From NCBI GenBank assembly GCA_965178125.1, contig OZ237748.1, forward strand, positions 124,001-188,000: DNA of 64,000 bases. Direction: 5' to 3'. This DNA comes from Bilabrum cf. latius. Taxonomy: Eukaryota. The first letter of the stretch is position 1. The number at the start of each line of letters is the position of its first letter. Below are positions 5,096-49,100 of this stretch, piece after piece. The notes below the pieces were generated by a model that was given only the letters and a program-made list of their open reading frames with translations, did no database searches and was not told where the DNA came from. Position numbers and translations under genes: made by a program.

Positions 5096-5146
<51 letters not shown>

Positions 5147-11015: not shown

Positions 11016-14000
11016 TCAAGGACAGCCCAATGCAGCACCGGTGCCATGCAGCACATCCTCCGAGATGCCAGCGAGCAACTCATGCCGTCGCTTTCCGACG
11101 AATAGCGAGCACAGATGGGCCACCAGGCCCTTCCCTGGGTCGGGCAGCCGAGCTGCCTCATACCCCGGCACGGTTTTCTCCCAGGCAGCAGCCAGTAGAT
11201 TGGCCCCGGGACGGCCGTGCCAGAACACGACAGTTCCGTGGTCCCGCAGCACAGACACCGGTGCCACGTTCTCCTGTGCGCCCCCTTGCGGTTCCACAAC
11301 GCTGGTCAAGAAATCAGCAGGCAGCGTCGATCCCGTCATGAGTACCACGGCTGTGTAACCTCTGCGCAATGTCTCGGCGGCGGCCTTGGCGGCCAGCGCC
11401 AGCAGCTGCACGCGGCGAAGAATGTGAGTGGGTCCCGCGCCCCAGCCTTCGTCCTCTCTGGCCACACTCCGCTCACGTCGATCTCCGGGAACTCCATCCG
11501 CTCTGTTGGCGAGCCCGAGGTCGGCGTCGGCTGGCGCTGAAGCGGAAGGTGGCGGCACGCGGCCATCTTCGGCCCACGAAGGCACCAGGATATGGGGCAG
11601 GAAGTATGGCTCGATCCCGTGGGTGTCCCAGCAGTACTGGGCGTGGTCGAGCGTGGGTGAGAACACAGCCGGGATGCCCACCGCGCCTGCCGTCTCGAGC
11701 GCTGCACTCACGGATCCGAGGCTTTGGCGGTGAGCATCGGTGTCCTGGTCTTCGTCACCAATCACGGTAATGACGGCCGGGGATGTGGCGAGCGGCTGCT
11801 CTGTTGCATTGGCGGTGCCGTGCTTGCCTCCCACTTGCTCATCCGGATGCGATGCTTGCTGCAAGCCACCCGTTCGCTTCTCGCGTCGGTCGCCCGCAGC
11901 ACTGGGGTACACGGCTCGCAGGGCCAGGTACTCGTGCAGAGTTCGTGCAGCAGGGACTGCATCGAGCAAGGATTGCTCTGCGCGAGTTTGCGCTTCGCTG
12001 TTGACCCCAATGCCTCGAGATGCTGGCTTCTCGATCATGCCCCAGTCGCTCGCGGCGGATGGCTGCAGGAGCCGTGCATCGGGACGAATGCCCCGCTTGA
12101 TCGCGTGCAAGCGGCGGCAGAGCTCGCACGTACCTGCCTTGGTTTGGTCAAACTCGACAATTCCGTCGTTCGTCGTCTGCCGCGTCGAACCTTCCGCCCA
12201 GTTGGCGAACTCACCCTGCATGATGACTCCACCCACCGGCCTTCGCTTGCCTCGTCCTGCGCGGCTGGCGCCCTTCTCGTCGTCGACCGCGCTCTGGCCA
12301 GATAGACGCATCCTCCCACCGCGGGCTGTGGCTGGGGGCCGGCCCGCCCGCCAGGCCTAGAACCGCGCCATGCCGCTCTCCAGGTGGTGTTTCACGGATC
12401 GTACCGCTGCCTTGGCCGAGGAGAACCCGCTCAGGTCAATGAGCGCGAGGGGGTGCAGCGAAAGCTCCTGCCAGTCGGGCGCGCCGAGGTAGAGCGGCAC
12501 GGAATGCGCCAGCATGGGGTTGGTGGCCTTTTCCGAAAAGTAACCGTGGCACATGGTGTTCTCCATCGCCACCGTGAGCGGCCACGGCTCGAGCGCCTTG
12601 ACCCGCAGCTTGGCCGCGTCGGCATACGTCACCCCATTCCCAAGGATGAGCCCAGTACCGTACGCGTCGCGCCTGTTGTTCATGCAGGTTCCGATCGAGT
12701 CTACCCCAAGCCCTGCGTTTAAGAGCGCCTTGAGCGTCTTTTCTCGATTGGCGCGGCTCTCGCAGTTGCTCTGCATAAAGACGGCAGGTTGCTTGGGGCG
12801 GATGGACCGGATGTCTGCCAGAGCGCGCGCGAAACGGCCTGTGGGAGGACGGCTGTCCGACTTGTTGCGTCCTCCGGATTGGTCTGGACCTGGGAGACAA
12901 CTCACGCGCGGCGAGGGATTCTCGCGGCCGGCACGCAGCAGACCCCTCCGGAGAGACCCGAACTGAGGTTTTGGAAGCGCCCGCAGCGGCATGCTCCACC
13001 ATAGTACCGCGTCCTGCACAGCTTGATCCCACAATTCGGCAGTAAGGTTGCTGCCAGCGACCTGAGGCTGCGCGTGATCACCTGCGGATCGATCCAACTA
13101 GGTGCCGACCCTCAGAGCCAGCAAGGTGCCTTCGGCTGCAGCCTGGGCACCACCGGGCACCACCCCGCGCACAGGCTCACGAAACACCAGGCCGCTCCAA
13201 ACATGCGCGGCGAGCTGTGCCGGCCCCGGTCTGAAGTCGTGAGTGGCTATTTGATTGAGTCGGCGATCGAAGCCTGCAGACAGGTCCAAGAGCGGCTGCA
13301 GCCCGATCTCGCCAACAGGATAGTTCCCGCTTGATTCGCTGGTTGCCTTGAGGTACAAGAGCAGCGGCGGTTTCGTTTTACTGCCGTGGTACCGCTCCTT
13401 GGTCGCAATGAGGGCGCAAATCTTCCGAAAGGAGCTCGGGGGTTTGGCCGCCTGGCTGCGACGCGAGAGCCACTGCTGGCACTCGCTTGCGTCCCGGCGA
13501 GCAATCGATGCCGCTTGGATGCTTTGAACCCACTCCTGGGCATGGTCCTCAATAGCGAGCCATTCGTTGCTGGCCCCCGACCCTACAGCACGGCCGCGCT
13601 GGGAGTGCGCCTTCTGCTGCCAGGCTGCGTGCAGCTGGGCCCTGCGGCGATCCGCACGCAGCCAGGCCCACCGCCCAGTCTCGACCTTGCTCAAAAAATA
13701 CCCGGGCTGGAAAAAATCGGTTGTTTGCTTTGGCAGGCCGGATGCGGCCAGAAACGACCGCTACAGCATGCTATTGGACAGCTCCAAGGCTCCCCCCGGT
13801 CCGCCATCAACCATCGCCTCGTGCAGCTGCCCCGCATCGTAGGCCAGCTCGCACGATACCACATCGTCCTTGGAAAACTGTGGATGCGCGTCAGACCACG
13901 AGTCGTCGTACCAAGGGCACTGTAGAGTAGTGGAGCGTCTCTTTTGCGAACCGATCGCCTTCTTCGCTTCCGCCATAGACCAGCGGCTGATTTTGAGCAG

Positions 14001-22547: not shown

Positions 22548-24728
22548 ATGTCTAAAAGCGCTGCCAGGAAGCGTACTGTCGTGTCGCCGAGCATGTACGT
22601 CCGGATTCGGCCTGCCGTGTACGATGGTTCCGGACACGACAACCGGGGCGCACTAGCCGCGAAAACGCTCGCCGGTTGGACCGACACGAGCGTAGACCTA
22701 AGCTCGAATTATTCGAGCAAAGGGTCGAGCGCCACATATACGTTTCCGAGGCGCGTTATCCGGCCGGAACATTCCCAGTCGGAGATGGCCGACACGGTGC
22801 GGCTGGACCGAATCGTTGACCAGTTCACGTCCTTGCAATCGTAGTGAGAAGCGTTTGTACTAGCGTTTGGGCAGACTGGAACCGGCAAGACGCACACGAT
22901 GTTTGGGCCAATGGCGGGACTGTCCGACGCCGCTGCCACCGAAGCGACTGCTTCGACTTTGAGAACGGGCCGGGGCGAGCATTTTGAGGCTACTGCGTTT
23001 GCAAGTAATGATGCAAGCAGGTCTGAATCTGCCACGCAATCAGCATTCCGAGCAAAAACTGCAAACAGCGCCGCTGCCAGTGGTGGGCCTTCTCTACCGA
23101 AAGGCCCATCACCCGGATCCTTCGGTGGCAGCAGCCCGGGCCCATTAGGCCTACCTAGATCTATAACGTCTCCAAGTCGTCCGGGATCGGGCCCGGAAGC
23201 ACGTTTACAGACAGGAGAAGGTACAAGCGCAGTCGGATCTTCGGCCGGTGCGTCGCACCGTGTCCCAATTGGCAGCAGCAGCAGCAGCGCACTGTCCGTG
23301 CGCGCCCCCGCTGCTGCCGGCGCATCCGGTCAGCCGCCTGGAGGGTGTGACGAGTGCGAGCACGAGCACGAGCACGAGCACGAGGCGTGGGGGCTACTGC
23401 CGCGGTTCCTGGTGCGCTGCCTGCGACAGCTGGAAGGCGCTGCAATGCAGTGCACCGATGGGGCGGGTGCGACAGGACTGTCCAAGGCGAAGGTTCGTGA
23501 AGGTTCTTCGGGTTATCGCGCCACAGTGGGCAAAGAGGAGGAGGACAAGCCGGACATGAGATCGTCATCTGCTCCTGCTCCTGCATCTCGGAGAGCCGAT
23601 GCTGCGCCGAGTGCCGACGCTTCTCCTCGTGCCGACGCTTCTCCTCGTGCCGATGCTGCGCCGAGTGGGCAGCGGCACCAGCACAGGTGGGTCATGTGCG
23701 CCCGTGCGGTGGAGTTCTATGCGTTCAGCGGACAGGACTGCTTCGGCGAGGCGCCTGTTGACGTGGACGGGGAAACCAACAACGTCATGGGGGCCACTCG
23801 TCACACCATATCGAACCTTCATGAAGCCCTGCGATTCTGCAGGGACGTGCTCCGGCACCGCACCACCCGTTCGACTTCCTGGAACCCGAGCAAGAAGGGT
23901 CTGGGTAGTATAGGGACTCGAGCCGGGGCTGGGGCTAAGATTGGGGCCAGGACTGGGGTCGGGGCTGGTGATGCTGATGGGGCTGGGGCTGGGGCTGGGG
24001 CCGGAGGGGATGCTGAAGCTGGTGCTAGACCAAGCACGGGTGCGGCCGGCGGTAGCTAGGGCGGGCCAGGTGTGACGAGTGCGAGCGAGCACGCGGGGTC
24101 GAGCCGCGGCCACGCCGCGATCGTGCTGGATCTGTACTAGCGTGTCGGCGACCGCGTATGTACACGCAACTCGGTGACCTTCGTGGACCTGGCCGGAGCC
24201 GAGGAGCGGATGCCTGACCGTACCCCCTCGATGGAGATATACTCCGCCATGATGCTGGGCAAGCCGATGGAGCAGGATTGGGAGGCGTTCTTTATCAATT
24301 TCGAGCTCTCGCACCTCACTGACGCAATCGTGCGGGCCCTCATGGTGCACAAGCAGGGCAAGATATACCGTCCCATGGCCCAGATGGCAACCCCGTGCAA
24401 CAAGGTCCTGAGCAAGTGCTTTGACGGGCGAGCATCGCTGCACTTTGTCGCTACCGTGTCCCAGGCGCCTCAGTGCGGCTGGAAGACCTGGTTCACGCTA
24501 GAAACGGGGAGAAAGTTCAGGAGGTTGGTGGCCCCACCGAGGCGGAAGAAGCCGACGACGCTCGCGAAGGCGATGGAGCGCGCCAGGTCGGAAGAGGAGA
24601 GGTTGAGAGCCAGCTTGGGCAGCAGCGGCCGCCACGGCAAGTACCGAGGGATCAAGGAACAGCAGCTCGCAGAGGCGGAGAAAGAGCTATAGATGTTTCG
24701 TATGCTGGCGGAGGAGGGAATGAAGTGA
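22548..24728 (+). CDS. Divergent kinesin motor-domain protein
   Basis: MYVRIRP, YTFPRRVI, P-loop AFGQTGTGKTHTMFG, switch I SSRGHA, switch II FVDLAGAE and LHFVATVSQ all lie in one frame. In-frame TAGs at 22842, 24057, 24138 and 24690; terminal TGA 24726-24728. One unexplained in-frame TGA at 22845. Confidence 0.85.
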
Positions 24729-26071: not shown

Positions 26072-27757
26072 TCACTCATCCTAGGACTCGCCCACGTAAG
26101 CGGATACCTTCTTGAACATATTTTCCGAGTATCCCTTGACCGGAGACAACTTGTGACCAACCGAATGGTAACCAGTCACCCACATACGATAGAACGTGGC
26201 CTCCTGGCGCAGGTGAAGCGCATGGCCTAATACCTCAAGCACCCTTGCCGCGGGCCGCATGTAGGACGTGTCGATGCTCCACAGGTACGCCCCGCTGTCC
26301 ATGTCCACGAGAGCGAGATCTCCCGCGCGGTCGCACTCCTCCCCCGTGATGACGAGTGCACACTTCTGGGCCTTGCCCCCGGTTTCCGACTTCCACTTGG
26401 TAGATCCCAGTGATATCTTCTCTACCAAGTCGCAGTCGTCCTGCAACTCGAGGGTGCCTGGGAACATGTCATCCTCACGGATCGTCTGCCCCATGGCCAG
26501 CAACTCATCGCTCCACAGAGAGTTACCGCTGGCGGCAGGTCGCTTAGCGAGCGCCTTGGGGTCGCAACGACGTGGAGCCATCCCTTCGATGGCCACCTGC
26601 AGCGCCGCCGTCTTGCGACCGTTGCCAAAGGTCTTGTCGTCGCCGGGACTATTCAGGTCCGCCGACCCCGCAGACCACGCGATGTCGCCTCCCGGCTGGA
26701 GCAAGACGGCATTCCCGTCCCCCTGCAGACGAAGGACTTCCACACCCGGGTCCATCAGCGAGGAAGGCACCCGCCAGATGTACTGCCCCGAGGCGCTGTC
26801 CACGATGGCCAGGTCGCCCTTGGTGTCGCACCCTTCCCCCGTGATGACGAGTGCGCACTTGCCCTCGGTCCCTTTGCCCATCGTGTTGGTCGCATACCGC
26901 GCCTAGCCCCCTCGGTACACCACCAGGTTGCAGTCTCCCTGCATGCGCAGCTCGACCCCCTCCCCCTCGCCCGCCTTCAAGGCGGCCCCGGCACGCAGCA
27001 CCTGCCCCGGAGAGAGCACGTCGCCGTCGGTCACTTGCTGGTACGGCGATTGCAGGGCCTTTGCATCGCACTGCAGACTGTGCACGTCCTCCCGCACCTC
27101 CAGATCGAAGCGGAAGTGATCCGCGTTGGACGGCAAGTTTCCGGCGGTGTTGGTGCTCCACAGCCGGTGCCCCCCTTCCTGAAAGAGAACGACATTGCCG
27201 TCATCCTAAACCAGAAAGGTGTGCACCTCTGGTGTGAAGATAGAGGATTGTACCCGCCAGAGGTACTTGCCTGTGTCCGTGTCGATGATGGCCAGGTCTC
27301 CCTGCGTGCTGCACGATGCATCCGTCAAGAGAAGCGCGCAGTGGGTGGACCGCGTCTCCCGTGGCCCGCCCACGTCGATCTCATCCGAATGACCATTGGC
27401 TTTGACGACCAACTTGCAGGACGGGTTGACCCATATCGTTGTCTTATCCCAGTATAAGACATCGCGTTTACCGGAGGGGGTCTCGGAATGCAGGATTTCG
27501 CCTTTCCCGAGCCTGTCGCCCTTTGCCGGCTTCCTCGCTGCCAAGGCGCTGACATCGCAGGAGAAGGTGTCAAGTTTGTCACTGATCATACTTTTTACAT
27601 GGCTGCGACTATCGTGCCTACTGTTGCTGGCGTGGACCGAGACCGATGACATAGAGCCAGCGCTGCGAAGGTGCTGCTGGCCTTCTGCTCGTCGCCCGTG
27701 CACAGTGACCACCGAACAGGCGGCCAAAGCCAGCGAAATGGAAGCGATAGATTGCAT
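26072..27757 (-). CDS. Secreted protein with three bulb-type (B-lectin, mannose-binding-like) modules
   Basis: Signal-like MQSIASISLALAACSVVTVHG. Three repeats with CALVIT...GDLAIVD..SG.YLW. Motifs MQGDCNLVVY, LQGDGNAVLL and LQDDCDLV. In-frame TAGs at 27206, 26903 and 26081; ends in TGA at 26072. Confidence 0.85.
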
Positions 27758-28188: not shown

Positions 28189-28539
28189 GAGCTGGACGAT
28201 GCAACCTCAGTTCACTCCTCCACCGCCGAACTGGACGATGCAACCTCAGTTCACTCCTCCACCGCCGAGCTGGACGATGCAACCTCAGTTCACTCCTCCA
28301 CCGCCGAGCTGGACGATGCAACCTCAGTTCACTCCTCCACCGCCGAGCTGGACGATGCAACCTCAGTTCACTCCTCCACCGCCGAGCTGGACGATGCAAC
28401 CTCAGTTCACTCCTCCACCGCCGAGCTGGACGATGCAACCTCAGTTCACTCCTCCACCGCCGAGCTGGACGATGCAACCTCAGTTCACTCCTCCACCGCC
28501 GAGCTGGACGATGCAACCTCAGTTCACTCCTCCACCGCC
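28189..28539. repeat. Near-perfect minisatellite, 9 x 39 bp, containing the MAPR stop codon
   Basis: gagctggacgatgcaacctcagttcactcctccaccgcc at 28189 + 39n. Confidence 0.97.
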
Positions 28540-29681
28540 GACCGCTTCTGTCTCCTCCTTGCGCCACCAGCACCACTGCCACCGCCACTTCGTCGCTTGA
28601 CCGGACCTCCAGAAGCTGCAGTGGATCCGCGCACAGTCCCAGCCGTGGCAGCCAGCTGAGGATCGGCCATGGCACCATCGACCTTTGCATCATGAGTTGC
28701 ATCGTCAGTGGCAGTGATGGTGTTTCCTTCCCCGGCCTTTGCCTTTGCCTTGTCTTCGTCCTCGTCTTTGTCCTTGGTCTGGGGCTGCAAGGGAGAGATC
28801 GACTCTTCATCTTCGACTGATGATGCCCCCTCCGGCCCGCTCGCCTCGGCACTGTCATGCGATGCACCGGCCTCGTCCTCCTCCGTCGGCACATCACTCG
28901 TCACACTGGCTTCCACACTCGTCACACCGGGATCCGCCTCGTTGCCCTCGTATGGCGCCTCCAGCGAAGGCATCCCTTTCCGTGGCACGCACCCCTCCGT
29001 CAGCCAGCCCACGGGCTCGTACTTCCTCAGGAAATACTTAATCCATTCATCGGCGCCCGACCCGCCCCCGTCTCTGCTCTGCTCCTCCCACGCCTCCCTC
29101 GTCTGCAGCTCGTCAGAGATGTCGAAGTTGTGCCTTGCCAAGGGGATGGAAGCATCGCAGTGCGTCAGCACGTGGTATCCCTTCCCGGGACCGTAGGCAG
29201 ACATGTTGCTCGTCACATCGAACACGATTCCTTTGCAGGACAGGTACAGCCGGCGTCCGTCGTCACCAATTTCTGGATTGGCGAGTTCGGGGTCGATGCT
29301 CGCGTCAGTGCCGTCGCACCGCTTGATTTCCTCGAGATTATATCCTCGCTTTGGCAAAGAAGCCCGGTAAGCCCGCACGGCGTTCTTGCGTAGCGCCTCG
29401 GCTTCCTGCTCGTCCGTCTGGCAGCACATGCCGCCGCACGTGAACAGCTTGACTAGCATTGAGGGAAACAATGCCGACGCCGCGGCTACAACTACGACTG
29501 CAGTTAGCAATATTCCGTCCCATCCAAGTCTGCCGGCGAGATACCGCTGCAAACGCCCCTGCTCGGATTTCTCCCCTGAGCTGATGGGTTCTTCTTCGCC
29601 TGCCGATGCAGCGGCTGCAACTAGCTTTGCTGCAAGTAGTGCTGCTGCCAGCGCTACCACAGTACTAGGTGCCCCCTTCAT
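28524..29681 (-). CDS. Membrane-associated progesterone receptor (MAPR)/cytochrome b5-like heme-steroid-binding protein
   Basis: Signal peptide plus TM, then YNLEEIKRCDG...LYLSCKGIVFDVTSNMSAYGPGKGYHVLTHCDAS...WIKYFLRKYEPVGWL and an acidic tail. Ends in TGA. Confidence 0.88.
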   Translation of the reverse strand: MKGAPSTVVALAAALLAAKLVAAAASAGEEEPISSGEKSEQGRLQRYLAGRLGWDGILLTAVVVVAAASALFPSMLVKLFTCGGMCCQTDEQEAEALRKNAVRAYRASLPKRGYNLEEIKRCDGTDASIDPELANPEIGDDGRRLYLSCKGIVFDVTSNMSAYGPGKGYHVLTHCDASIPLARHNFDISDELQTREAWEEQSRDGGGSGADEWIKYFLRKYEPVGWLTEGCVPRKGMPSLEAPYEGNEADPGVTSVEASVTSDVPTEEDEAGASHDSAEASGPEGASSVEDEESISPLQPQTKDKDEDEDKAKAKAGEGNTITATDDATHDAKVDGAMADPQLAATAGTVRGSTAASGGPVKRRSGGGSGAGGARRRQKRSAVEE

Positions 29682-30017: not shown

Positions 30018-31821
30018 TCACGCGTACTCCTTCTTGATAATCTTTGCGATCGTGTTCAGCTGGATGTTGCTCGTGCCCTCGTAGATCGCCCCGATCTTCT
30101 GGTCCCTAAAGTACTTCTCCACAGGGTAATCCTTCGTGAACCCAACGCCCCCCATCCACTCGATCGCCTTGGAAGCCGCCTTTTCGGCCACCTGAGAGGC
30201 GTACAGCTTCGCCATGGCGGCTTCCTTGACGAAATCAACACCGGCTTCCTTCCTTCTCGCGGCGTTGTAGACAAAGTTACGGGCGGCCTCGATCTCCATC
30301 GCGACCTGCGCGTGCTGGTGCTGCATTCCCTGGAAATCGCCGATGGCCTGCCCGAACTGTTCCCGCTCAAAGGAGTACCTCATCCCGTGGTCAAAGGCGC
30401 CCTGCGCGATGCCAAGCATCTGCGCCGCTATGCCCACCCTTCCCTCGTTCAAGATCTCGATCGCGATCTTGTAGCCTTTGCCCACCTCCCCAACCACCAT
30501 GTTCTTCGCCACCTTGACACCATCAAACGTTACGGGGCATGTGCTGGATGCCCGGATCCCCAGCTTGTCTTCCTTCTTTCCGACCTCTAAGCCCTCCGCA
30601 TCACCTTCCACGAGGAAGCATGTGATCCCCCTGTACCCCTTGCTGAAATCCGTGTTGGCCAGCACCAGGAACAGACCCGCTTCCTTGGAGTTGGTGATCC
30701 ATGCCTTGCTCCCGTTGATCTCCCAGTGGTCCCCTTTGTCCTCCGCCTTGGTCTTCATGGCGAAGGCGTCGCTGCCCGAACCAGCCTCCGAGAGACAAAA
30801 GCAGCCGAGGGTATCGGATGCAAGCTTTGGGTATGCGAAGGCCTTCACCTCATCGCTCGCGTACATTGCAAACACGTTGTTGACAAGGGTGTTCTGCACG
30901 TCTACCATCACGGACACGGAAGCGTCCACACGGGCCAGTTCCTCAACCACGAGGCAAGCAGCGGTGAAGGAAGAACCGGTGCCTCCATGCTCCATGGGGA
31001 TCTCCACTCCCATGAGCCCTTGCTGGAACAGGCCGTCGATGACGCCCTTGTCCATCGTTGCCGTTGCGTCCATCTCTCGCACGAGAGGGGCTACTTTCTC
31101 CTGGGCGTAGGCTCGCACTGCGTAGGCGGCAACGCGATGTGGACGGCAACGCGATGTGGGCGGCAACGCGATGTGGACGGCAACGCGATGTGGGCGGCAA
31201 CGCGATGTGGACGGCAACGCGATGTGGACGGCAACGCGATGTGGACGGCAACGCGATGTGGGCGGCAAGAGGGAAATTTCACGGCGACAGCATACTGTCA
31301 AGTTAGGTTGTTCTGACACATACACAGGGTGTTAGTTTTCTTCCAACAAACAAGCAGCGTCCGTTGCAGGCAGCAGGGCAGGTACGCAACCACCCGGGGA
31401 CAAGGCACCATCCCTCGCCCCAGCGCGCCAGCACCTCATGCTGCCCAGGGACGCTTTGTGCATCTCATGTGCAATCCGCGATGTGGCCAGATGCTTTCCA
31501 AATGCTGAACTCGGGACAAAATGCAAGGACGGACATTTGATCTCCCGAACCGACAGTGCACCCAGCTCTCTTGTGTCCTAGGTGCTTGAACATTGAAATA
31601 CATCATAGCCAAGCAGTCGTACACTCATATGATTCAATCTTACCCATGTCGCGGATGGCAGTCTCCTCCTCGGTGAAATGCCCGATAGGCAGAGCTCCTG
31701 AGGTTGCAGCTGCACTTGCCGAGGCGGCAAATGATCTAGAAGCGCGAGTAGCAGTCTGGCTGCGCGCTCCAGAAAGAGTCTTGGAAACAATCTTTAGTGC
31801 CGCTCTGCCCGTTCGCATCAT
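30018..31821 (-). CDS. ACADSB: Mitochondrial short/branched-chain acyl-CoA dehydrogenase, 2 exons: 31821-31644 and 31117-30018
   Basis: Arg/Ser-rich presequence. [22 protein letters not shown] across intron 31643-31118. [37 protein letters not shown] and [14 protein letters not shown]. Ends in TGA. Confidence 0.93.
31128..31268. repeat. Intronic 17-bp tandem repeat, about 8 copies, adjacent to the 3' splice site
   Basis: ggcaacgcgatgtgg(a/g)c units. Confidence 0.95.
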
Positions 31822-32389: not shown

Positions 32390-35300
32390 ATGGACCGAGC
32401 GTCCCGCATGCGCACTCTCCGGGGCGAGAAACCCGGCCCAGGCACTGTGTCAGGGAGCAGTACTAGTACCAGCTCGGAACATGCACAGGTTGTTGTTCGG
32501 GTGAAGGAGCAATTCCCCAGCAACGGGCCGGCCACGGTGGCGCCCATCTCGGCACCACTCGGCAGCGGAACCTCGGCGCCGCGCATCAGCAGCGACGGGA
32601 CGAATCACCCGTCACAGCCACGAGTGCTCCCAGATCCGATCCCGCCACCGCGACTTGTGCCCCCCCCGGCCCCCCCTTCCGGCACGGCCGTGGTGGGCGG
32701 CAGCGGTTTAACGGCCGCGGCCGCTGCAGCGACGGGGACAGGGGGGGGCGGCTGGTTCGCCACGATCAAGAAATCCAAGCGAAGGTTCGCTCAGGGGCTC
32801 TTCCGCGCCCTGGGGGTCGGCGGCGACCTTCAGTCCCACGAGAAAGACCCCGGCTTCGAACGGGCCCAGGCGCGGCTGCATGCGGTGGAAAAGGCGGTTG
32901 CAACCATGCAGCAGGCCACGCGGGAATATCTCGAGGGGCTGCGGGCGCAGCACCGCAGTGCGATGCACCTTGGGGAGGCCCTATACGGGGTCGCGGGGCA
33001 GCAAATCCTGCAGCCCCCCGGGGCGCAGCTGATCCGTGGTGGCGGCGCCGCGCTTGCGGAACCAGGTGATGGAACCGCAGACATTGCGCGGGGCCGCGGT
33101 TCCACATCCAGCCAGGGGTTGCAGAACTCGTCCCCGTCCCCATCGCGCGCAGCCCCCAGCGTGGGGTCGGGGTCGGGGTCGGGATCGGGGGGGGGGCTTA
33201 TCAAGCCTGCGGGGGGGGGCAGGAGCCCCCCGCTGAGCCGCACTGCGTCTGCCCGAGCGGTGGCCAAGGGAACCGGGAGTGTGGGTCGCGAACCCAGCGA
33301 ACTTTCGTCGCCCGGGGGCGGCAGGGTGGCGGGAACGTCGCGGTCGGGCCCGAAGCGGCGGAGGCGCAGCAGCGCTAGTTCCGGTTTGGGGCTTGGGGCG
33401 GGTGGGTCCAGGGAGCGGGGCATGTCTGAGATGAGCGCCGGCGGCGGAGATGTGACGAGTGGCGGTATGCGACCTAGTGTGACGAGTGCGGGGCAGGGCC
33501 TGAACAGCGCCATGCGAAGCGGCAGCGACGGCAGGTACGCCGCCGATTTTGGTGTGACGAGTGCGGGCACCGGGACCGGTCCGACCTCGGGTAGATCCGG
33601 AGCCGGTAGTGGTGCCGGTGCGTGGGTGACGAGTGCCGGTGCCGGTCCTGGCGATGGTGTCGATGGAGATAGGGAGAGCAGCGGGGAGATCCTGAGGGAC
33701 TACAGCGGAAGGAGCGAGCGGGGCAACAGCGACGTCACTCGTCACACCACCACCAACGCAAAGACCGCGGCGGCGGCGGCGCTGGACGCCTTCGCGTTCG
33801 ATACCCCCGCGGGGAGGGTGTTCCGAGGGGGGGGTGCCCTTTCGGGGCAGCCCACGGGCGCCAGGCTCATCGGCTTAAGGCCGGCATGGCTGGCCGTGCA
33901 GGAGCAGCAGGCCAGGGCGCAGGCGGTTGGGGGTGTGACGAGTGGGGTCGCGTCCGGGTCGGAGTCGCCGGAATCGGTTGCAACCGGTGGGTCGCCGCCG
34001 TCACACTCGTCACAACGCCACGGACGCGGCTTGCTGGGCGCTGCGGGGGCGTTGCGCGGCGAAGCCGCCCTGGCGGAATCGGAGCGATTATTCGTCACAC
34101 GTCGGCTGCACTCCGCGGCGCGAGCGGCGGACGTGGCTCGTGGCGTCTGGCGGGGCATGTCGTCCTCTGTCCTCGTGGCCATCGAGAGGGCCGCTGCTGA
34201 TTCGATCTTGGATCCGTGCGCGCAGGTCAGCGCGTGCTGCGCCGACGGTGCCCGGCTGCTGGCCAAGCGGCATCGGTATGCCACAGACCTGGACAGCTAC
34301 GAGAGACGACTCGTGAGCGCGTTTCAGCGGGGTGCCCGGCTGGAGGGCAAGGAGGGGGCGGCGGCGGAGGCCGCTCTGGTGGAGGCGCAGGGAGGTGTGA
34401 CGAGTGCGGGCATGGAGGGGGGGGAGGGGGTGCGGGCATCGGGTGAGGCGTATCGATCCGGCTCCGGATCCGTGATGGGATCAGGGAGCACGGGCGGCGC
34501 CGGCACCGCCATCGCGAGCGGAACCGGGACGCACCGCCGCGCGGCGCCCCCTGGATCCGGAGCCGGCCATGGCCCGGGCCCGGGGTCCATTCAGGCGGAG
34601 CTGGGGCGAGGCACGGCCCCCAGCGCGGATGCCACGGCGGACGCCCGGCGATACCTCGGCAAACTGCTAGCCGCGAGGGGGGTGTTCGAGGCGGTGTCGG
34701 CGCAGCTTGAAGCCCTTGTGTGGGCGGCCGAACGTTCGGTGTGCGAGATCACGGGGGCCGGCGGGGCGGTGCTGCTGGCTGCCACGGCCCACGCGGCGGG
34801 TCATGCTCGGGAGGCCAGCGAGGCGGCGGCGGCCCGGGTGCCAGAGGCTGCCGGTGCCATGGCGCAGCTGGCCGGGTACACGGCTGCGGCTGCTGCGGCC
34901 GCGGCAAGAACCATGCAGCAGCAGCAGCAGAAAGAACAGAAAGAGAGAAGCGAGTCGCAGGGCGCGGATGGTGTGACGAGTGATGGTTCCGGTTTAGAGG
35001 GTGCCATCGGGGTGAGCAGCTACAGCGACTCGGAATCGGATGCCGACGCGCACGGTGACCCCGCAGGTCCCGGCTCCGGATCCGACCAGCGGAACCAGCT
35101 CCCAATTGCGCGGCGCCGCCCCACGGACCCCATGATGCGCGCCCCCCGGGCCCTCCCCGCCTTGGGTCGCCTGGGACGGCGGGGCACCGTGGTGGTGCAG
35201 CGAAGGTTCCCTCAGTTCAGGTGCCTGGCCGACGCCGCGGCGAATCCAGTCGGGGCTGCGCTGCCGCGGTGGGGCCGTGTGTTCTCGGGTGCATCGCACG

Positions 35301-36901
35301 GTGGTGTGGACGCGGATTCGGAGCCGATGGGCGGTGGTGGTGCCGTGGTGCCGCCGCCCAGCCAAGCCACTCTCGAGGCCGAACGCGGCCTTGTGCGCGG
35401 CGCCATGCTCGGCGGAACCGGTTCCGCAGCCGCGCGCAAGGTACTAGGGGGGGATGGAATTAGAGGTGGTGAAAGTGGCGCCGTCGTAGGTGGCCATAGT
35501 GGTACAGGCGGTGCGGGGAGCAGCAGGATGGCATGGCACTCCGCCGCGGCGCCGCCCGGTTCCGCACCCAGACCCGGAGCAAGCCGTCTCCGCGGAGACG
35601 CTCCTGCCACGTCTCCATCTTCGGGTCCCGCATCGGTAGCTTCGAACGATCCGGGCGCCGCCGCCGCCGCAGCAGCAGCAGCAGCAGCGGCAGCGGCAGA
35701 GGCAGAGGCAGACAAGGCGCGGGCGGCAGAGGCCGTGCGGGGAGCAGAGAGGGGTTCGAGCAGCTGGAACTCCGGCATCCCACTCGTCACACCACACGCA
35801 GAGAACACCGCCAGTCGGGAGGGCAGTCGAAGCAGCAGCGTGGCATCCGCCCGATCGCACTCGTCACACCCCTCCTCCTCCTCGGCGTCTCCCCTGCAGC
35901 AGCGAGCCGCACTCCCTCCTCCGCCCCAGCAAGCGAGCGCGATTCTGGCACGGAGGAAGGCGAGGATGAAACTGCAGAGTGTGACGAGTGAAGGAGCCGC
36001 AGAGAGTGGAAGCGCGGGTGCGTTCGGCTCGCCTCCGATCGAAGGTGGTGTGACGAGTGCGGGCCCCTGGCCGATGACCCCACGAGAGGTGGACAGCGAG
36101 GATGACGATGACGATGACGAGGATGACGATGACGATGACGAGGAGGAGGACAATGAGGATGGGAATGAGGGTGAGAATGAGAGGGGGCAGCAAAGTGGAT
36201 TGACCGTGGAGGCTGGCAGTAACCGTACTACTAAATTGGATGGAGCTGCAGCTCGAGAAGGATGGTCAGCTGGCGGCGACGCAAGCTCCCGTACAGGCCA
36301 CAGGCACAGGAATGGCAGCAAGCTGCGAATGGTTGCATCGAACGGTGGTGCCGCGCCCGCCTCGCAGGACGCATTGGTCCCAAGCAAACCGCCAGCACCA
36401 GCACCAGCACCAGCACCAGCACCAGCACCGGCACCAGCACTGGCAGCGCAAGCCCGTGGCTTGACATCCGCAACCGGGGCCCCACCGCCCCCAAAGCCTA
36501 GGGGGGTTCTCAAACAGAAGGGCTCATTCTCGTCCCCGAGAGTCAGGTCCAAGAAGAGTGTGATGAGTGGGAATGGCGGTGTCGGTTAGGGGGCGCCAGC
36601 GGGACCAGAGGGTAGCAGCAAGCCAAGGGCCATGGCTATGGCCAAAGACAAGGCCAAAGACAAGGGTAAAGGCAAGGCCCCGCCTCCGAGGCCGAGGCAG
36701 AGGCAGAGGCAGAGGCAGAGGGTTGGCAGGCTATCCATCGCGGGATCAGGACCACTCTCAGGGGCTGAAAGCGGAAAGGCTGCATCTCGTGGGAATGAAT
36801 CAGGAATTGCAGGCTCAGCTAGACCCGCAAAGGTGTCTAAAGTGGTGAAGCCCTCGCTCAAGCCGCAAGCCCCAGGGCACCGCGAAAGCTAGGCTACATG
36901 A
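32390..36901 (+). CDS. N-BAR (amphiphysin/Rvs167-like) domain protein with large low-complexity insertions
   Basis: FATIKKSKRRFAQGLFRALG...EKDPGFERAQARLHAVEKAVATMQQATREYLEGLR and LLAKRHRYATDLDSYERRL. TAGs at 36587 and 36890 read through to TGA 36899-36901. ctaac...ctag near 32340 suggests an upstream intron. Confidence 0.7.
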
Positions 36902-39231: not shown

Positions 39232-42200
39232 TCAGTTACATTCGGCAGATCGGGTCGCGGCCGCTCTTCGAACCGAAGAGATCGACACGCCGATCGTCAC
39301 CAGCTCGGCCGCGACCTGTCTCTTTAGATCATCCGAGCCCTCCCAAATGCAAAGAATAGCCTGGGCTGCCATCCTGGCCCTGTATCCAGTTGTTTGATTT
39401 TGCACGACGCCCGCGAGCACCTTGATGGCATTCTCCCACACGAGGGCTTGCTTCCTGCTGGTTACACTGCCGGCTGCCAGCCACCTCATGGCGGACGCCG
39501 CAAAGTCGCCCGCCTTGCCGCCGTCAGTCTCAACAAGGTGCAGCATCGACCCTACCGCTTCTCTGCAGTGCGCAATGGACGCTCTCATTTCGGCGCCGAT
39601 GGCCATGTAGCTCAGAGCAGCTGCCGCATTGACCACCTGCGAACCGGTCCCCGATTTCAGCTGATCGACCAGCTTAGAGATCGCGCCTGCCTCTTTGACC
39701 ACCTTCCGCCTGTGCATGGCCAAACCCGCGTCGGGCCCCCTCATGAGATTCGCCAGTGCGCCCGCAGCATGCTCTGCAAGCCGGCCCCTCGCGGCACCCA
39801 GCCGTCTCACGATCGAAGGCACGGCACCGGCATCCACGACAGACTGCTTGCACTCGCATTCGCCGCTTCCGATTCCTCTCAGGCAAGCCAGCGCAAGCTC
39901 CTCACGGTGTAGAGAACCTTCGGCCGAGGGGGCTTCGCTCTCGAAACGGTGGATGAGGAGGCCACCAAGAGCAGTAGGCATTCCGGCGCGCGCCGCTGCA
40001 ATCTGCACCGATGGCCGCCTTTCGGCCAGTGCCTGTTTCACCAGCAACAGCATCAGATCCGTCGTGTCACGGGCACTTGGGCTCATCAAAGTGCACGCTA
40101 CTTCCATCGCGGGGGTACTCCCCATGGCAATCCCAAGGGCATCAGGCGCCATTTCCTTTGCTGCTAGGATCACCTCCCTTGCTATAGCCGAAGCAGCCGC
40201 CCACTCGCCCCGCAGTGATTGTCCCCCCCCAGCTGTTGCACCCCCCCTTGCTCCATCTTTCCCCTTCCCCTTGTTGCCCAGCCCGAGCAGCTGCAGCACG
40301 GCAGGCAGCGCACCTGCCTCTACGATCGCCACGGGCACATCCGGAGATGCGGTGAATATCGTCTGCAGCGCCCACCTTGCCCTCGGTGCATCGGTGTGAC
40401 GAGTGACGATGCCTACGAGGCCCTGGACTGCGCCCGCCCGAACCACAGCCAGGGCACCTGTACCTGCTTCGCTCTTATCTGCAATCAGCCCAAGGGCCCA
40501 AGCGACATCACCTGCAATCAGTGGTTCGGCACCAGCACCAGCACTAGCACCAGCACCAGCACCAGCACCACCACCAGCACCTGAAGGGGCCCCGGCAGCG
40601 GCAGCGGCATCCGTAAGCAAGGGAACAAGAGCGGCAGGTGCATCTGCCTCGACCACAGCGGCCTTCGAGTCCGGGCAGAGGGCCAGCACGCGGATGGCAC
40701 TGATCGACTGACGCAGCAGCTGATTGCGATCCGAACTGTGATCCGATCCTTGATCCGATCCTTGATCCGATCTTAGCACGTCGACGAGCGCCGGGAGTGC
40801 ACTGGCTCCAACGATCGCCGCCCTGTTTCTGACATCCCCTGCAGCATGCTGTGCAAGGATGAACGCTGCAAGCGCGGGCGACATGCCAGCGGCATCAATG
40901 CTACCTCTGTTCTGTATCGCATGCACGATCGCCTCGAGTGCTCCGACACGAGTGGAAATCATCGCGGACATGCCCTTCCTGGCTTCAAGGAACAGCGACT
41001 GCGCAACGGGAGGCAGGTCGCTTCGCTTCTCCACTCCCGATCCCACCCTGATGTGCCACATGATGGCGGCCAAACCGGCAATCTGGCCGAACCCTCCACC
41101 AATTTCTTGCATAATGTCCCTGATGGCTTTAGATACGCGCCCGTGTGCGGCCTTGTTATCACCTCCTACTAGCAGCTCGATGTCCTTGATGCTCACCCCT
41201 TCGGGCACGGGGATCCGGCAGCGCGAGGCGACACCCGGGCGTGCGGATGGGCAGCTTTGACCACCAGCACCACCGTGAGGTGCGTCTTCGTCTGAACCGC
41301 GGCTGGGACCGCTGCCAGTTTGACCACCCCAGCCAGTTTGTCCATCCCGTGGTCCGGACGGGGGAGTTGCGCGGCCGCTGGCACCACCTTGCGCGGCGCC
41401 CGACCCAGCAGGTTCCGCAGGAGCGCCGCTGCCCCATGCCGCGGGTACAGCGGGCTGTGCCCGACCGCAGACCTACCGGAGCAGCTCAACGGCTTTGTGC
41501 ACCTCCATCCGCTTGCCCGCGTCTGCCTGCAGCAACCCGCCGAGGATTCTGCGGAGCCAGGCCGGTCGGAAGGACAGGATGGCATTCCCGGCGAACGTTC
41601 CCTCCAGCGAAGCAACCGCGCTCTGCCTATTCCCAAGGGCTGGTACCGTGCCGTTGTGCAGCTCAGCAGGGTACTAGTCCCCGAACGGGTGCTGCCCTCC
41701 GGTGGCCAGCTCATGCAGCAGCACACCCAGCTCCCACGACGCCTGCTTGCCGTAGGGAACAAAGGACTCAGCACTGTCCCCAGTCTGGTCTATGTACAAC
41801 CCATCCAGGACCTCAGGCGCGAGGTGTGCCTGGTTCCCGCCTAGTCCTAGCCCGCCTTCTCTAGCGAGGTCACTGTACTTCACACTGTCAAGTGCTTCCG
41901 AGATGGCCTGTTCTCGCTCGTCTGCGTGAGGCGACATGTAGTCGGCGCCTCCCGCCCTGCATGCATCACGAACGTTCGTATCAATCGAACAACCTAGGTC
42001 GATCAGCACCGCCCGCCCCGCCCCCTCCGGACCCCCCTTCGAGTCCCACATCACGTTGTCCAGCTTGAGGTCACGGTGCACCACCCCGTGCTGCAGCAGG
42101 TGATGCACGCCCTCCGCGATATCGCACCCCAGTGCGGCCACGCTATCATCGTCAAAATCAGTACCTGTTTCTCTTTGCCGCCGGGCCATGCGCTCTTCTA

Positions 42201-46144: not shown

Positions 46145-49100
46145 ATGCCAAAGACCGGGGGAGGCATATCGACCATGACCCGCCTGACGTCACAGGGAGT
46201 CATGGACGCGAGCGGGTCATCATCGGACGGCGGCGGTGCTGGAGTCAACAGGGGCTTTGTGCAGAAGCAGGCAGGCAGCAGCGGAGGCACGGCGGACGCT
46301 GGCCTCGACACGATCAGGGGGGTGTTCCTGCCGTGCCTGCAGAACATCCTGGGGGTGCTGCTGTTCATCCGGTGAGGCGGTGGTGTGACGAGTGAATCGC
46401 CCGTCGCTCGGGTCGTCGGGTCGTCCGCTCCCCACGTCTCACGCCCCCTCATTTCAACGTAGATGATCCGTCCCCTTCTGACCTTAGCTGCACCCTCATA
46501 CTTGTTCCTTGCTTTTATAATTTCGCCACCAATTGTTTCCTTCCATGTTTTCTTATTTCGCCATCATATTTTTCCTTCTCAGGTTCGGCTGGGTCGCTGG
46601 ACAGGCGGGCGTGGTGCTAAGCTCCTTGATCATCGTGCTGTGCGTCAGCACCACTTTGCCCACCGCCCTGTCCATGACAGCGGTTGCAACCAACGGGAAG
46701 GTGGGCGGCGGAGGCGGGTACTTTATCGTATCCCGGAACATGGGCGCGGCGGCTGGGGGTGCCATCGGGTTTCTGTTCTATCTGGGCACCAGCGTGGCGG
46801 TGTGGTGAGTGTCTGGCCATTCCAGCCGATTCGTGCGATGCATGCGATCCGTGCGATGCACGCGATGCATGCGATGCACACCACAGCATCTTTACGCTGC
46901 ATTCATGCCCATCGACCACTCGTCATGCGATTCCGTCCAATGCTCATCACACCCATTACCACCCTCGCTCGTCACACCGCAGCATGTACACCCTGGGCGC
47001 CGTGGAGACGTTCCAGAAGGGCTTCGGGTTCGAAGACATGTTCCCATTCGACAGGCAGCTGATCGGGATCGGCGTGGTGCTGGTGCTGGCGTCCCTAGTT
47101 TACGTGGGCGTGGAAATGGTGAACCGAGTCGCTTCGCTGTTCTTGCTGGTGGTCATAGTGGCCATCGTGCTGGGGCTAGGGGGTCTGATCGCCTTCGCGG
47201 CTGGAAGCGACCACGGAGCCACTGGGGACGTGGGCAAAGCCGATGAAATCGCGGTCGGACCGGACTATTCCGAAGATCCCGACACTGGAATCACGCCCAC
47301 GTTCCAGCTGCTTGTGGGGATCGTATATCCGGCAACCACGGGCATCATGGCGGGTGCCAACAGGTCTGGCCTGCTGGCAGACCCGTCTGTTGCGATCCCC
47401 TACGGCACCATCGGTGCGATCGCCGTCACGTTCGTCATTTACATCGCCACACTCGTCATGTTTGGATCTCTCGTCGACCGGCAGACACTCCTGAGCAACA
47501 AGCTGGTCTTCGCATCGGTGGCATACCCCATCGACACCGTGGTGCAGGTTGGAATCCTCATGTCAAGCATCGGCGCAGGGCTGCAGTCGCTTGTGGGTGC
47601 CCCGCAGCTGCTGGCAGTGATGCTAAAGGATGACGTGCTTCCATTCGTGCACACGGGGAGACATCTCCTCCAGTGGTGCGGGGCCCATTGCTGCTGCCGT
47701 AGCTGCTGCTGTGGCGGAGGCGGAGGAGCTGGCGGTGTATTGGATAACGATTCCGAGTCTTCGGGCGGACCCCCCGGGGATGGATCAGGAGCCGCATCGG
47801 CGGCGGGCGGCGGCAGCCGCGAGGTGCCGGGGACTTCCGGCTCCGGATCACCGGACCAGACCACGGGGGCGTATGGCCTCCCAGTGCCCGCCAAGTCGAG
47901 ACCCTGCGTGGACGAAACCGCAGAGGAACGGGCCGAGCTGGTCCTTGCCCGGGCCAGGGCGCGCGCCCGGGCGCAGACAGAGGCCAAGGCCGCCGCCAGC
48001 ACTCGTCACACCGCCACGGTGATGACGGCGGCAGATGCAGCGGAGGAGGAGGACATGGATCGGACGGAGCTGGCCATCTCCAGGCCCGCTTCCTCGGATA
48101 GGCTCGTGGCGCAGGGAAACGCAAAGACCAGCACCAGCACCAGCACCAGTCGCAGGTCGATCAGAGAAACCGGAACTGTCCGCCGCACCCGCACGCCCAC
48201 CCCCACCCAGCACTCTGGGGGCGAGCCCTCGGAGGAGGAGCAGGCCGTCCTGGCCGCAGTGGAGGCAGAGGCAAACAAGGAGAGGGAGGGGGGCACGGCG
48301 GGCTTCACCGAGCTGGCCATCACCGCAGGAATCGCGGCGTGCTGCTGCCTCGCTGGAAACCTGGACGTGATCACCCCCATTCAGACCGAGTTTTTCCTCA
48401 TGTTCTACCTGAGCATCAACCTCGCCACTTTGGTGCTGACCCTGTACCCCACCCCCAACTGGCGGCCCACAACACCCGCCCACTGGGCCGTCAGTCTGCT
48501 TGGGGTGATCACGTGCTCGGTGGTCATGGCTCTGGTCTCCTGGTGGCAGGCACTTCTAGCGGCAGCGATGGCAACGGGCCTCTATTTCTGGATCTCGGCC
48601 GAGGACCAGTCCAGCGAATGGGGCGAATGGGGAAGCACCATGGACTCTGTGCTGCTGGGGAGGGCCCATTCCGCCCTGGTTGCGCTGCGAGACAAGAACT
48701 TCACTCCCAAGTCTTGGAGGCCGCAGCTGCTAATCCTTGCAGAGTCGGATGAGGGTGGTATCCCAAGGCGACCGGAGCTCCTGGAGCTCGGAGGTTAGTT
48801 GAGCAAAGGCAGAGGACTGACCATGTGCGCCACGGTGCAGAGAGGTCGCCTCCTGACCGTGCTGTCTCAGGAGAGGGACAGGTTGAGGGAGATGCGGCGG
48901 GCTGCCAAGGACAGGGCGGTGGAGAGAGCCCAGGAACTAGCAATGCAGAGGGGTGTGGTGCTCAGCGATTCCGCCATCGCCCGCGTGAGGACGAGTGCCG
49001 CGAGCCGGCTGGCTTTGCACGAGTACGATACTGCCATCGGGGCGAAGCAGCGACGGCTTGTAGCTGCCATGGAGGTGTGCGGCGTGTAGGGCGGGTTTGG

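Follow-up and report, generated by a model that had tools for sequence, protein, structure and literature searches.

An in-frame TAG in a bulb-type lectin gene and the probable reading of UAG as glutamine in a GC-rich eukaryote

Is a TAG triplet that stands where bulb-type lectins have a sugar-binding glutamine a stop codon or a sense codon? The question is raised by a lectin gene on the minus strand of contig OZ237748.1 from Bilabrum cf. latius (Eukaryota; NCBI GenBank assembly GCA_965178125.1). The stretch of 64,000 nucleotides that was analysed (positions 124,001 to 188,000 of the forward strand) is called the window here, and all coordinates are window positions with the strand given as (+) or (-). 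The evidence makes it very probable that UAG is a sense codon in the nuclear code of this GC-rich eukaryote, with glutamine as its likeliest meaning, and that UGA and probably UAA terminate translation. NCBI translation table 15 is the best reading of the code type. The TAG at 27206-27208 would then be an ordinary glutamine codon and would account for the Q in one of the Q-x-D-x-N-x-V-x-Y sugar-binding motifs.

The TAG codon and the lectin reading frame

The minus-strand codon 27208-27206 is TAG, and it is in frame with the lectin gene. A direct read of the window at 27220-27150 gives the bases ACC TTT CTG GTT TAG GAT GAC GGC AAT GTC GTT CTC TTT CAG GAA GGG GGG CAC CGG CTG TGG AGC ACC AAC ACC, which translate as T-F-L-V-stop-D-D-G-N-V-V-L-F-Q-E-G-G-H-R-L-W-S-T-N-T. 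This bears out an earlier sequence-only reading, made without database searches, in which the minus strand encodes FLV-TAG-DDGNVVLF..LWSTNT. The same reading pointed to three sister motifs within the gene, LRMQGDCNLVVY (Q codon at 26941), LRLQGDGNAVLL (26725) and LELQDDCDLV (26443), and all three are indeed in frame. Beyond these sisters and the TAG site, no further copy of the motif pattern is found on either strand of the window.

Under the standard code, a single frame is split into three open reading frames (ORFs; 27841-27206, 27136-26903 and 26881-26081, all (-)), each closed by a TAG. If TAG is read through, they merge into one long ORF, 28021-26072 (-), that ends in TGA. Downstream of the TAG at 27206-27208, the same frame continues for 377 codons without a TGA or TAA. 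The chance of such an open run is approximately 0.003 by an estimate, naive for GC-rich DNA, taken from the six-frame density of TGA plus TAA (1977 per 127,998 codons). The coding signature in the GC content of the three codon positions (GC1/GC2/GC3) is equal on both sides of the TAG, and homology to solved lectins carries on 3' of it. The start of the coding sequence (CDS) and the signal peptide are conserved in one relative (fragment P0025), and the C-terminus is conserved in another (fragment P0026).

A decaying pseudogene or an assembly error, in which the TAG is a true premature stop, would also account for a gene that the standard code leaves in three pieces. The degenerate motifs in domain 3 and parts of domain 1, and Pfam scores that fall under the cut-off, sit well with such decay. 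However, TAG alone interrupts the gene, with no TGA, TAA or frameshift, and the same pattern occurs in at least four unrelated conserved genes. The coding signature is also intact on both sides of the TAGs, and the start, the end and a C-terminal QDE are shared with relatives. We regard decay or misassembly as highly improbable.

The residue at TAG positions

If UAG is a sense codon, then alignments with relatives can suggest which amino acid it specifies. Lectin domain 1 was aligned with an X at the TAG, so that a guess at the residue could not bias the alignment. The comparison includes 153 relatives. An exhaustive, profile-free search of 1.84 billion representatives (query TAGs as Q) matches 1602 proteins at E <= 0.001, and the best 150 of these provide 149 of the relatives; the other four are the only proteins, all distant, that a word-indexed homologue search with the lectin returns (one is shared). 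Using phmmer, the X-bearing domain aligns with 515 stretches of these proteins, and 510 of them have a residue at X.

This residue is Q in 474 of the 510 stretches, which come from 141 of the 153 relatives. The remainder are R (8), E (6), S (5), H (4), L (4), A (2) and K (2), with other residues occurring once each. The neighbouring motif columns are similarly conserved (D 504/512, N 490/512, V 496/512 and Y 467/510), and among the stretches that have D, N and V like the window module, Q is present in 456 of 478. Among the 13 printed stretches of the five best solved B-lectins, the residue opposite X is Q in all but one, which has T. The sequence-only reading placed the TAG at an invariant Gln. 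The TAG does fall inside the Q column rather than outside it, as judged from the phmmer alignments in place of placement on the Pfam hidden Markov model, and this column is approximately 93-96% Q rather than invariant.

The third in-frame TAG of the lectin gene (26081-26083) can be compared with a close relative. Four such relatives have 60% (P0025), 81% (P0048), 73% (P0020) and 66% (P0026) identity to the lectin. The C-terminus of P0026 reads ...ESQDE against ...ES-TAG-DE-TGA in the window, and the TAG consequently faces Q. This pairing provides an independent second case of TAG opposite Q, only two codons ahead of the stop. An intron was considered for the tail that follows ...ARVLE, where the junction of GAG with GTATTAGG resembles a splice donor. 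This candidate was rejected because the alignment with P0026 extends over the tail up to the shared C-terminus, which shows the tail to be coding and establishes the TGA at 26072-26074 as the real terminator.

The window has approximately 61% GC and contains long genes on both strands. Its 12 frames bounded by TGA or TAA total 13,274 codons and contain 37 in-frame TAGs. If TAG is taken as sense, then the summed length of frames of at least 300 codons rises from 18,195 to 33,755 codons, and the frames joined by readthrough reach 2073, 1749, 1519, 1422, 1338, 1319 and 1217 codons. The codon-position GC1/GC2/GC3 pattern stays coding-like across these TAGs. Frames that are supported by homology are broken only by TAG, never by TGA or TAA, and they contain no frameshifts.

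The K-Cl cotransporter gene (SLC12 family; 46684-50946 (+)) matches human KCC3 (1.9e-83), with homology before, between and after its three TAGs. At residue 705, where human KCC3 has Q, the column is Q in seven, H in one and W in one of the nine homologues that were aligned out of 13 found. TAG also occurs within or between the domains of a fucosyltransferase gene and of a gene that combines a kinase domain with armadillo (ARM) repeats (Table 1). In the latter, the ARM repeats are at residues 763-1118 in the same frame, 300-700 codons past the two TAGs, and the alignments of this gene covered the ARM repeats only. A kinesin-like frame with two TAGs (22899-24728) has no match among solved structures at E <= 0.01. 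Six TAG positions are comparable with relatives, which is a small sample; three fall on Q and three on variable polar columns. The latter three are compatible with Q and not diagnostic.

Several observations weigh against reading UAG as glutamine with UAA retained as a stop. The second lectin TAG (26903-26905) faces K in P0048, which is 77% identical in this alignment, and K or S in solved lectins. The column of SLC12 residue 802 is variable (D in five of the nine homologues, with single occurrences of A, K, E and S), and fucosyltransferase residue 841 faces H in 7yro_A. The sub-motif that carries the TAG retains D, N and V and has Phe in place of Tyr. The match of the whole protein to Pfam B_lectin (PF01453) is below the gathering cut-off (24.7 versus 32.4 bits), as are those of the isolated domains, with 16.7 bits for domain 1, 14.0 for domain 2 and no match for domain 3. 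No tRNA with anticodon CUA is found in the 64-kb window by ARAGORN or Rfam. The status of TAA as a stop comes from its absence in approximately 13,000 codons and from one gene end.

The comparison of the three lectin domains with each other also counts on this side. According to the sequence-only reading, the sister modules identify the amino acid as Gln without any external database. Domain 2 does have Q at the position equivalent to the TAG, but domain 3 has L there, and in the self-alignment sub-motif I has N in domain 1 where the other two domains have Q. This internal control is weaker than claimed, and the assignment of Gln becomes firm only when outside evidence, from P0026 and the SLC12 column, is joined to it.

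Some of these columns might be accommodated by a different amino acid at UAG, such as Lys, Glu, Leu or Tyr. The K that faces CDS codon 285 belongs to a fragment, P0048, that itself stops exactly where the window has K, and KCC3 has K opposite SLC12 residue 802. K and Q, however, swap readily at exposed positions. Other lineages use UAG for Leu and UAR (UAA and UAG) for Glu or Tyr, according to two papers (PMC5304391, PMC11687900). The same four residues together fill only 13 of 510 positions in the lectin column (K 2, E 6, L 4 and Y 1) against the 474 with Q, they are absent from the nine residues at SLC12 position 705, where Q predominates, and the C-terminal lectin TAG faces Q. We consider a sense assignment other than glutamine quite improbable.

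Termination and comparison with known codes

If UAG is read as glutamine, then the frames of the window should close with TGA and TAA. TAA occurs 415 times and TAG 747 times over all frames, and TGA is approximately 3.8 times more common than TAA. With TAA alone taken as sense, the frames of at least 300 codons increase from 18,195 to only 21,271 codons in sum. When TAA is taken as sense on top of TAG, none of the eight longest frames gains more than 57 codons. TAA readthrough extends four frames upstream by 7-162 codons of non-homologous sequence. Past the cadherin-like gene it adds 56 codons that have a non-coding look and contain another TAA. Across the frames of the window, there is no in-frame TAA or TGA that requires readthrough, and readthrough of either one joins no coding frames.

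Of the 11 complete frames, TGA closes ten and TAA the remaining one, in a sample of about a dozen genes whose frames are themselves defined by TGA and TAA. This ratio of TGA to TAA ends is near the expectation from base composition and therefore says little about stop preference.

Editing of the mRNA from U to C could convert TAG to CAG while the standard code is kept, and it would likewise place Gln at the TAG sites. If such editing were active, however, it would be expected to rescue TAA as CAA and TGA as CGA also, and neither is found in frame. To our knowledge, systematic nuclear U-to-C editing of stops is not established in eukaryotes, and there is very little likelihood that it explains the lectin TAG.

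The code might also be broader or dependent on context, such that UAA specifies Gln as well (UAR = Gln, table 6) and is rare in this GC-rich genome, or such that UAG serves both as Gln and as a terminator. UAR = Gln is the commonest variant in the portion of PMC11687900 that concerns it, and TAA is rare in every frame of the window. If TAA followed the ratio of CAA to CAG (90:353), however, then approximately nine in-frame TAAs would be expected beside the 37 TAGs, and none joins coding frames. The sequence past the TAA of the cadherin-like gene also argues against UAA as a sense codon.

TAG precedes the closing TGA by two codons at 36890-36901 (+) and by 11 codons at 24690-24728 (+) in two further frames, an arrangement like that of the lectin gene. 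A context-dependent UAG could terminate the two frames that have no comparable relative. In the lectin, by contrast, the TAG two codons before TGA faces Q in fragment P0026, whose last residue coincides with that of the lectin, and this speaks against TAG as a terminator close to 3' ends. We consider a broader or context-dependent code unlikely, and UAG as glutamine with UGA and probably UAA as stops is preferred.

A code in which UAG specifies Gln and UAA is still a stop is described for Iotanema spirale (Fornicata) in part of PMC5304391 and for the phyllopharyngean ciliates Hartmannula sinica and Trochilia petrani in part of PMC11687900. UAG and UAA with different meanings are rare in the portions of the literature concerned, which attribute them to a single rhizarian, a single fornicate and a few lineages of ciliates. 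In the same portions, Iotanema, Hartmannula and Trochilia have UAA as their primary or preferred stop, whereas 10 of 11 window frames end with TGA at approximately 61% GC. The window resembles these three organisms in that UAG alone would be Gln, and table 15 likewise opens the lectin of 561 amino acids. Its genes differ from those of ciliate macronuclei in being long and, for the most part, without interruptions.

UAR = Gln (table 6) is listed for Tetrahymena, Oxytricha, hexamitin diplomonads, oxymonads and ulvophytes in part of PMC5304391, and the aphelid Amoeboaphelidium protococcarum reads both TAG and TAA as Gln according to part of PMC6299283. In these lineages, as would be the case in the window, a stop is reassigned to Gln and TAG occurs at conserved Gln positions. 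They differ in that the window has no in-frame TAA that would back a reassignment of UAA. Amoeboaphelidium genomes have approximately 40% GC in the portion of PMC10608142 that gives this value, and the window, with 61%, is therefore not from that genus. The nucleariid Parvularia was also considered as a user of such a code and was dropped, since a literature search turned up no title or abstract on a Parvularia code.

By analogy with other lineages in which UAG specifies Gln, UAG would be decoded here by a tRNA-Gln with anticodon CUA, and the release factor would no longer recognise it. A tRNA-Gln(CUA) should read UAG and not UAA, as stated in part of PMC11687900. No eRF1 gene is present in the 64-kb window, and Rfam finds no RNA family at all within it. 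The only call by ARAGORN is a 91-base tRNA-Gly(tcc) at 4032-4122 (+), opposite the coding frame 6219-1 (-). Rfam does not confirm this call at gathering scores, and it is probably a false positive.

The close lectin relatives in the public protein set are only four fragments of 58-185 amino acids, located on two contigs of 8.1 and 9.8 kb. Such fragmentation is expected if standard-code ORF calling met in-frame stops, and it suggests that related organisms share these stops and are misannotated under the standard code. An exact look-up in the protein collection finds neither the full-length table 15 lectin nor any of four standard-code pieces.

Tentatively, the window may represent an independent, unreported origin of a UAG-only code, outside both ciliates and metamonads, in which UAG is uncoupled from UAA in a GC-rich genome with UGA as the working terminator. 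Close relatives in public data would then probably share this code, given that their lectin genes are present only as short pieces. A literature search for UAG reassignment in stramenopiles, Bigyra and heterotrophic flagellates, with supplementary files outside its reach, returned nothing relevant. Codes that split UAG from UAA are relevant to the question of a mechanistic coupling between the two codons, and one more lineage, this one rich in GC, would be an independent example of termination that falls to UGA and not to UAA. In practice, gene callers that apply the standard code would cut the genes of this organism at every TAG, and both annotation and metagenomic binning of its group would need table 15.

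The lectin protein and other features of the window

The lectin gene product is a divergent three-domain member of the B_lectin family. At E <= 1, it matches 34 distinct PDB sequences of solved bulb-type lectins, with the Polygonatum lectin 3a0c_A the best (E = 1.5e-7). All 30 members of the alignment (29 retrieved relatives and the window segment) match Pfam B_lectin at E <= 0.001, and the best E-value is 1.3e-32. An AlphaFold2 model of residues 165-460 has a mean predicted local distance difference test score (pLDDT) of 68. Block means are 82-96 in domain 2 and fall to a low 29-50 over the first half of domain 1. With Foldseek, the model superimposes on the Gastrodia lectins 1xd5 and 1xd6 (E = 2.3e-7; template modelling score normalised to the target 0.86-0.88). 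The predicted fold is that of a bulb-type lectin (beta-prism II).

Of the nine sub-motifs, QGDCNLVVY alone conforms fully to Q-x-D-x-N-x-V-x-Y; besides the TAG-bearing one, two are partial and the other five are degenerate. The middle sub-motif of all three domains is replaced by a Cys-containing segment, C-A-L-V-I-T-G-E-x-C-D-x-x-G-D-L-A-I-V-D. In lectins of the GNA type, mannose is hydrogen bonded by four residues of the motif, namely Gln, Asp, Asn and Tyr. Secretion of the lectin and mannose binding by its motif would follow from its signal peptide and from this family likeness, and sugar binding at the TAG-bearing site, with Phe for Tyr, is uncertain. The middle sub-motifs (...GDLAI[IV]D..[ST]G.Y[IL]W..., near 27290-27340, 26790-26850 and 26300-26360, all (-)) score 27.2 bits against the PQQ_2/BamB propeller profile, for which the cut-off is 27.6. 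Such sequence convergence could mislead automatic annotation.

The window lectin resembles the monocot mannose-binding lectins (3a0c, garlic 1kj1 and Gastrodia 1xd5/1xd6) in sequence, predicted fold and threefold motif architecture. Those lectins have one domain of approximately 110 amino acids, whereas the window protein has three tandem domains behind a signal peptide, Cys-containing middle sub-motifs and a single canonical sub-motif. Tandem GNA-like domains also occur in the two-domain SCAfet (1dlp), LlpA/putidacin L1 and the pyocins L1/L2 (3m7h, 4le7 and 9pxj), which are matched by both sequence and fold. Only some domains keep functional motifs in these proteins and in the window lectin alike. 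SCAfet and the bacteriocins, however, have two domains and are either plant proteins for storage or defence or toxins made by bacteria, whereas the window protein is eukaryotic, apparently secreted and of three domains. A killing function is not implied by the likeness to bacteriocins.

Table 1. Coordinates of the lectin gene, the TAG codons of other genes and a recurrent 12-mer in the window
Feature	Position	Strand	Remarks
Apparently secreted three-domain GNA-like (B-lectin) CDS	26072..27757	-	561 codons plus TGA, three in-frame TAGs; one open protein of 561 amino acids under table 15
Probable signal peptide MQSIASISLALAACSVVTVHG	27695..27757	-	Judged by eye; nearly identical in relative fragment P0025
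Lectin domain 1	27122..27529	-	4pdt_A match, E = 5.3e-7; first two sub-motifs degenerate
TAG in motif	27206..27208	-	CDS codon 184, long-ORF residue 272; in Q column of lectin alignments
Motif TAG-D-D-G-N-V-V-L-F	27182..27208	-	Domain 1, sub-motif III; Q-x-D-x-N-x-V-x-(Y to F)
Lectin domain 2	26660..27022	-	Best conserved; 3a0c_A, E = 1.5e-7, long-ORF residues 341-454
Canonical motif QGDCNLVVY	26915..26941	-	Domain 2, sub-motif I
Second in-frame TAG, VVYRGG-TAG-ARYATNT	26903..26905	-	CDS codon 285
Motif QGDGNAVLL	26699..26725	-	Domain 2, sub-motif III; position equivalent to TAG motif
Lectin domain 3	26222..26524	-	8a9m_A match, residues 500-557; third sub-motif degenerate (VLEVLGHALHL)
Motif QDDCDLVEK	26417..26443	-	Domain 3, sub-motif I
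Third in-frame TAG	26081..26083	-	CDS codon 559, two codons ahead of stop
TGA terminator of lectin gene	26072..26074	-	Coincides with end of fragment P0026
SLC12 TAG, residue 705	48796..48798	+	Faces Q of human KCC3, ...FASQLKAGKGLT...
SLC12 TAG, residue 802	49087..49089	+	K in KCC3; homology carries on past the TAG (779-870, 981-1061, 1356-1420)
Fucosyltransferase (GT10) TAG, residue 841 of ORF 14879-11016	12357..12359	-	Inside Glyco_transf_10, residues 697-844
Kinase and armadillo-repeat gene TAGs	41674..41676 (residue 374), 41473-41475	-	Kinase domain upstream, ARM repeats downstream
12-mer GTGTGACGAGTG, examples	33477-33488, 34395-34406, 50021-50032, 55086-55097	+	
12-mer GTGTGACGAGTG, examples	28895-28906, 62088-62099	-	

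The best named relative of the SLC12 gene is from the bicosoecid stramenopile Cafeteria roenbergensis (43-47% identity). The best relatives of the acyl-CoA dehydrogenase (ACAD) gene (30018-31133 (-)) have 76-78% identity, and the named ones, at 63-70%, are mostly from fungi (zoosporic and other) with some from animals. The fungal matches suggested an aphelid source, which was rejected on the GC content given above. An Atlas look-up with the ACAD gene matches only generic acyl-CoA dehydrogenase clusters, which point to no taxon. An ACAD homologue (P0178, 70%) and an SLC12 homologue (P0007, 44%) have one source in common, where the longest contig given for each measures 47,232 bases, and a relative may therefore have kept the two genes linked.

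The 12-mer GTGTGACGAGTG occurs 31 times in the 64 kb (19 plus and 12 minus), where dinucleotide shuffles predict 0.02 copies. A further 12 variants have one mismatch and eight have two. The copies have sharp edges, and their flanks are not conserved except for G-richness on the motif strand. They lie mostly within coding frames in either orientation, and the sense reading is G-V-T-S. Examples are nine copies of this peptide in the frame 32390-36901 and four in the low-complexity C-terminal inserts of the cotransporter. TGACGTCA was considered as the source of the recurrent G-V-T-S peptides and rejected, having only two copies; the real repeat is GTGTGACGAGTG. As a string in literature full text, GTGTGACGAGTG is found only in four papers titled on unrelated subjects, presumably as primers.

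Three tandem arrays are also present. The first (28189-28541) has a period of 39 bases, 9.1 copies and 99% matches; several frames are open through it on both strands, and the frame 29846-28524 (-) extends into it with its 3' end. The second (4321-5145) has periods of 57 and 174 bases, approximately 13 copies and 83-86% matches, and is followed by a GCA run. It lies within the frame 6219-1 (-), which has more than 2073 codons, and encodes Ala-rich GSSASGQVPMGAAAAA repeats. The third is a 17-base repeat (31127-31268; 8.4 copies, 96% matches) directly upstream of the point where ACAD homology starts, at profile position 8. This repeat is probably an intron or a leader.

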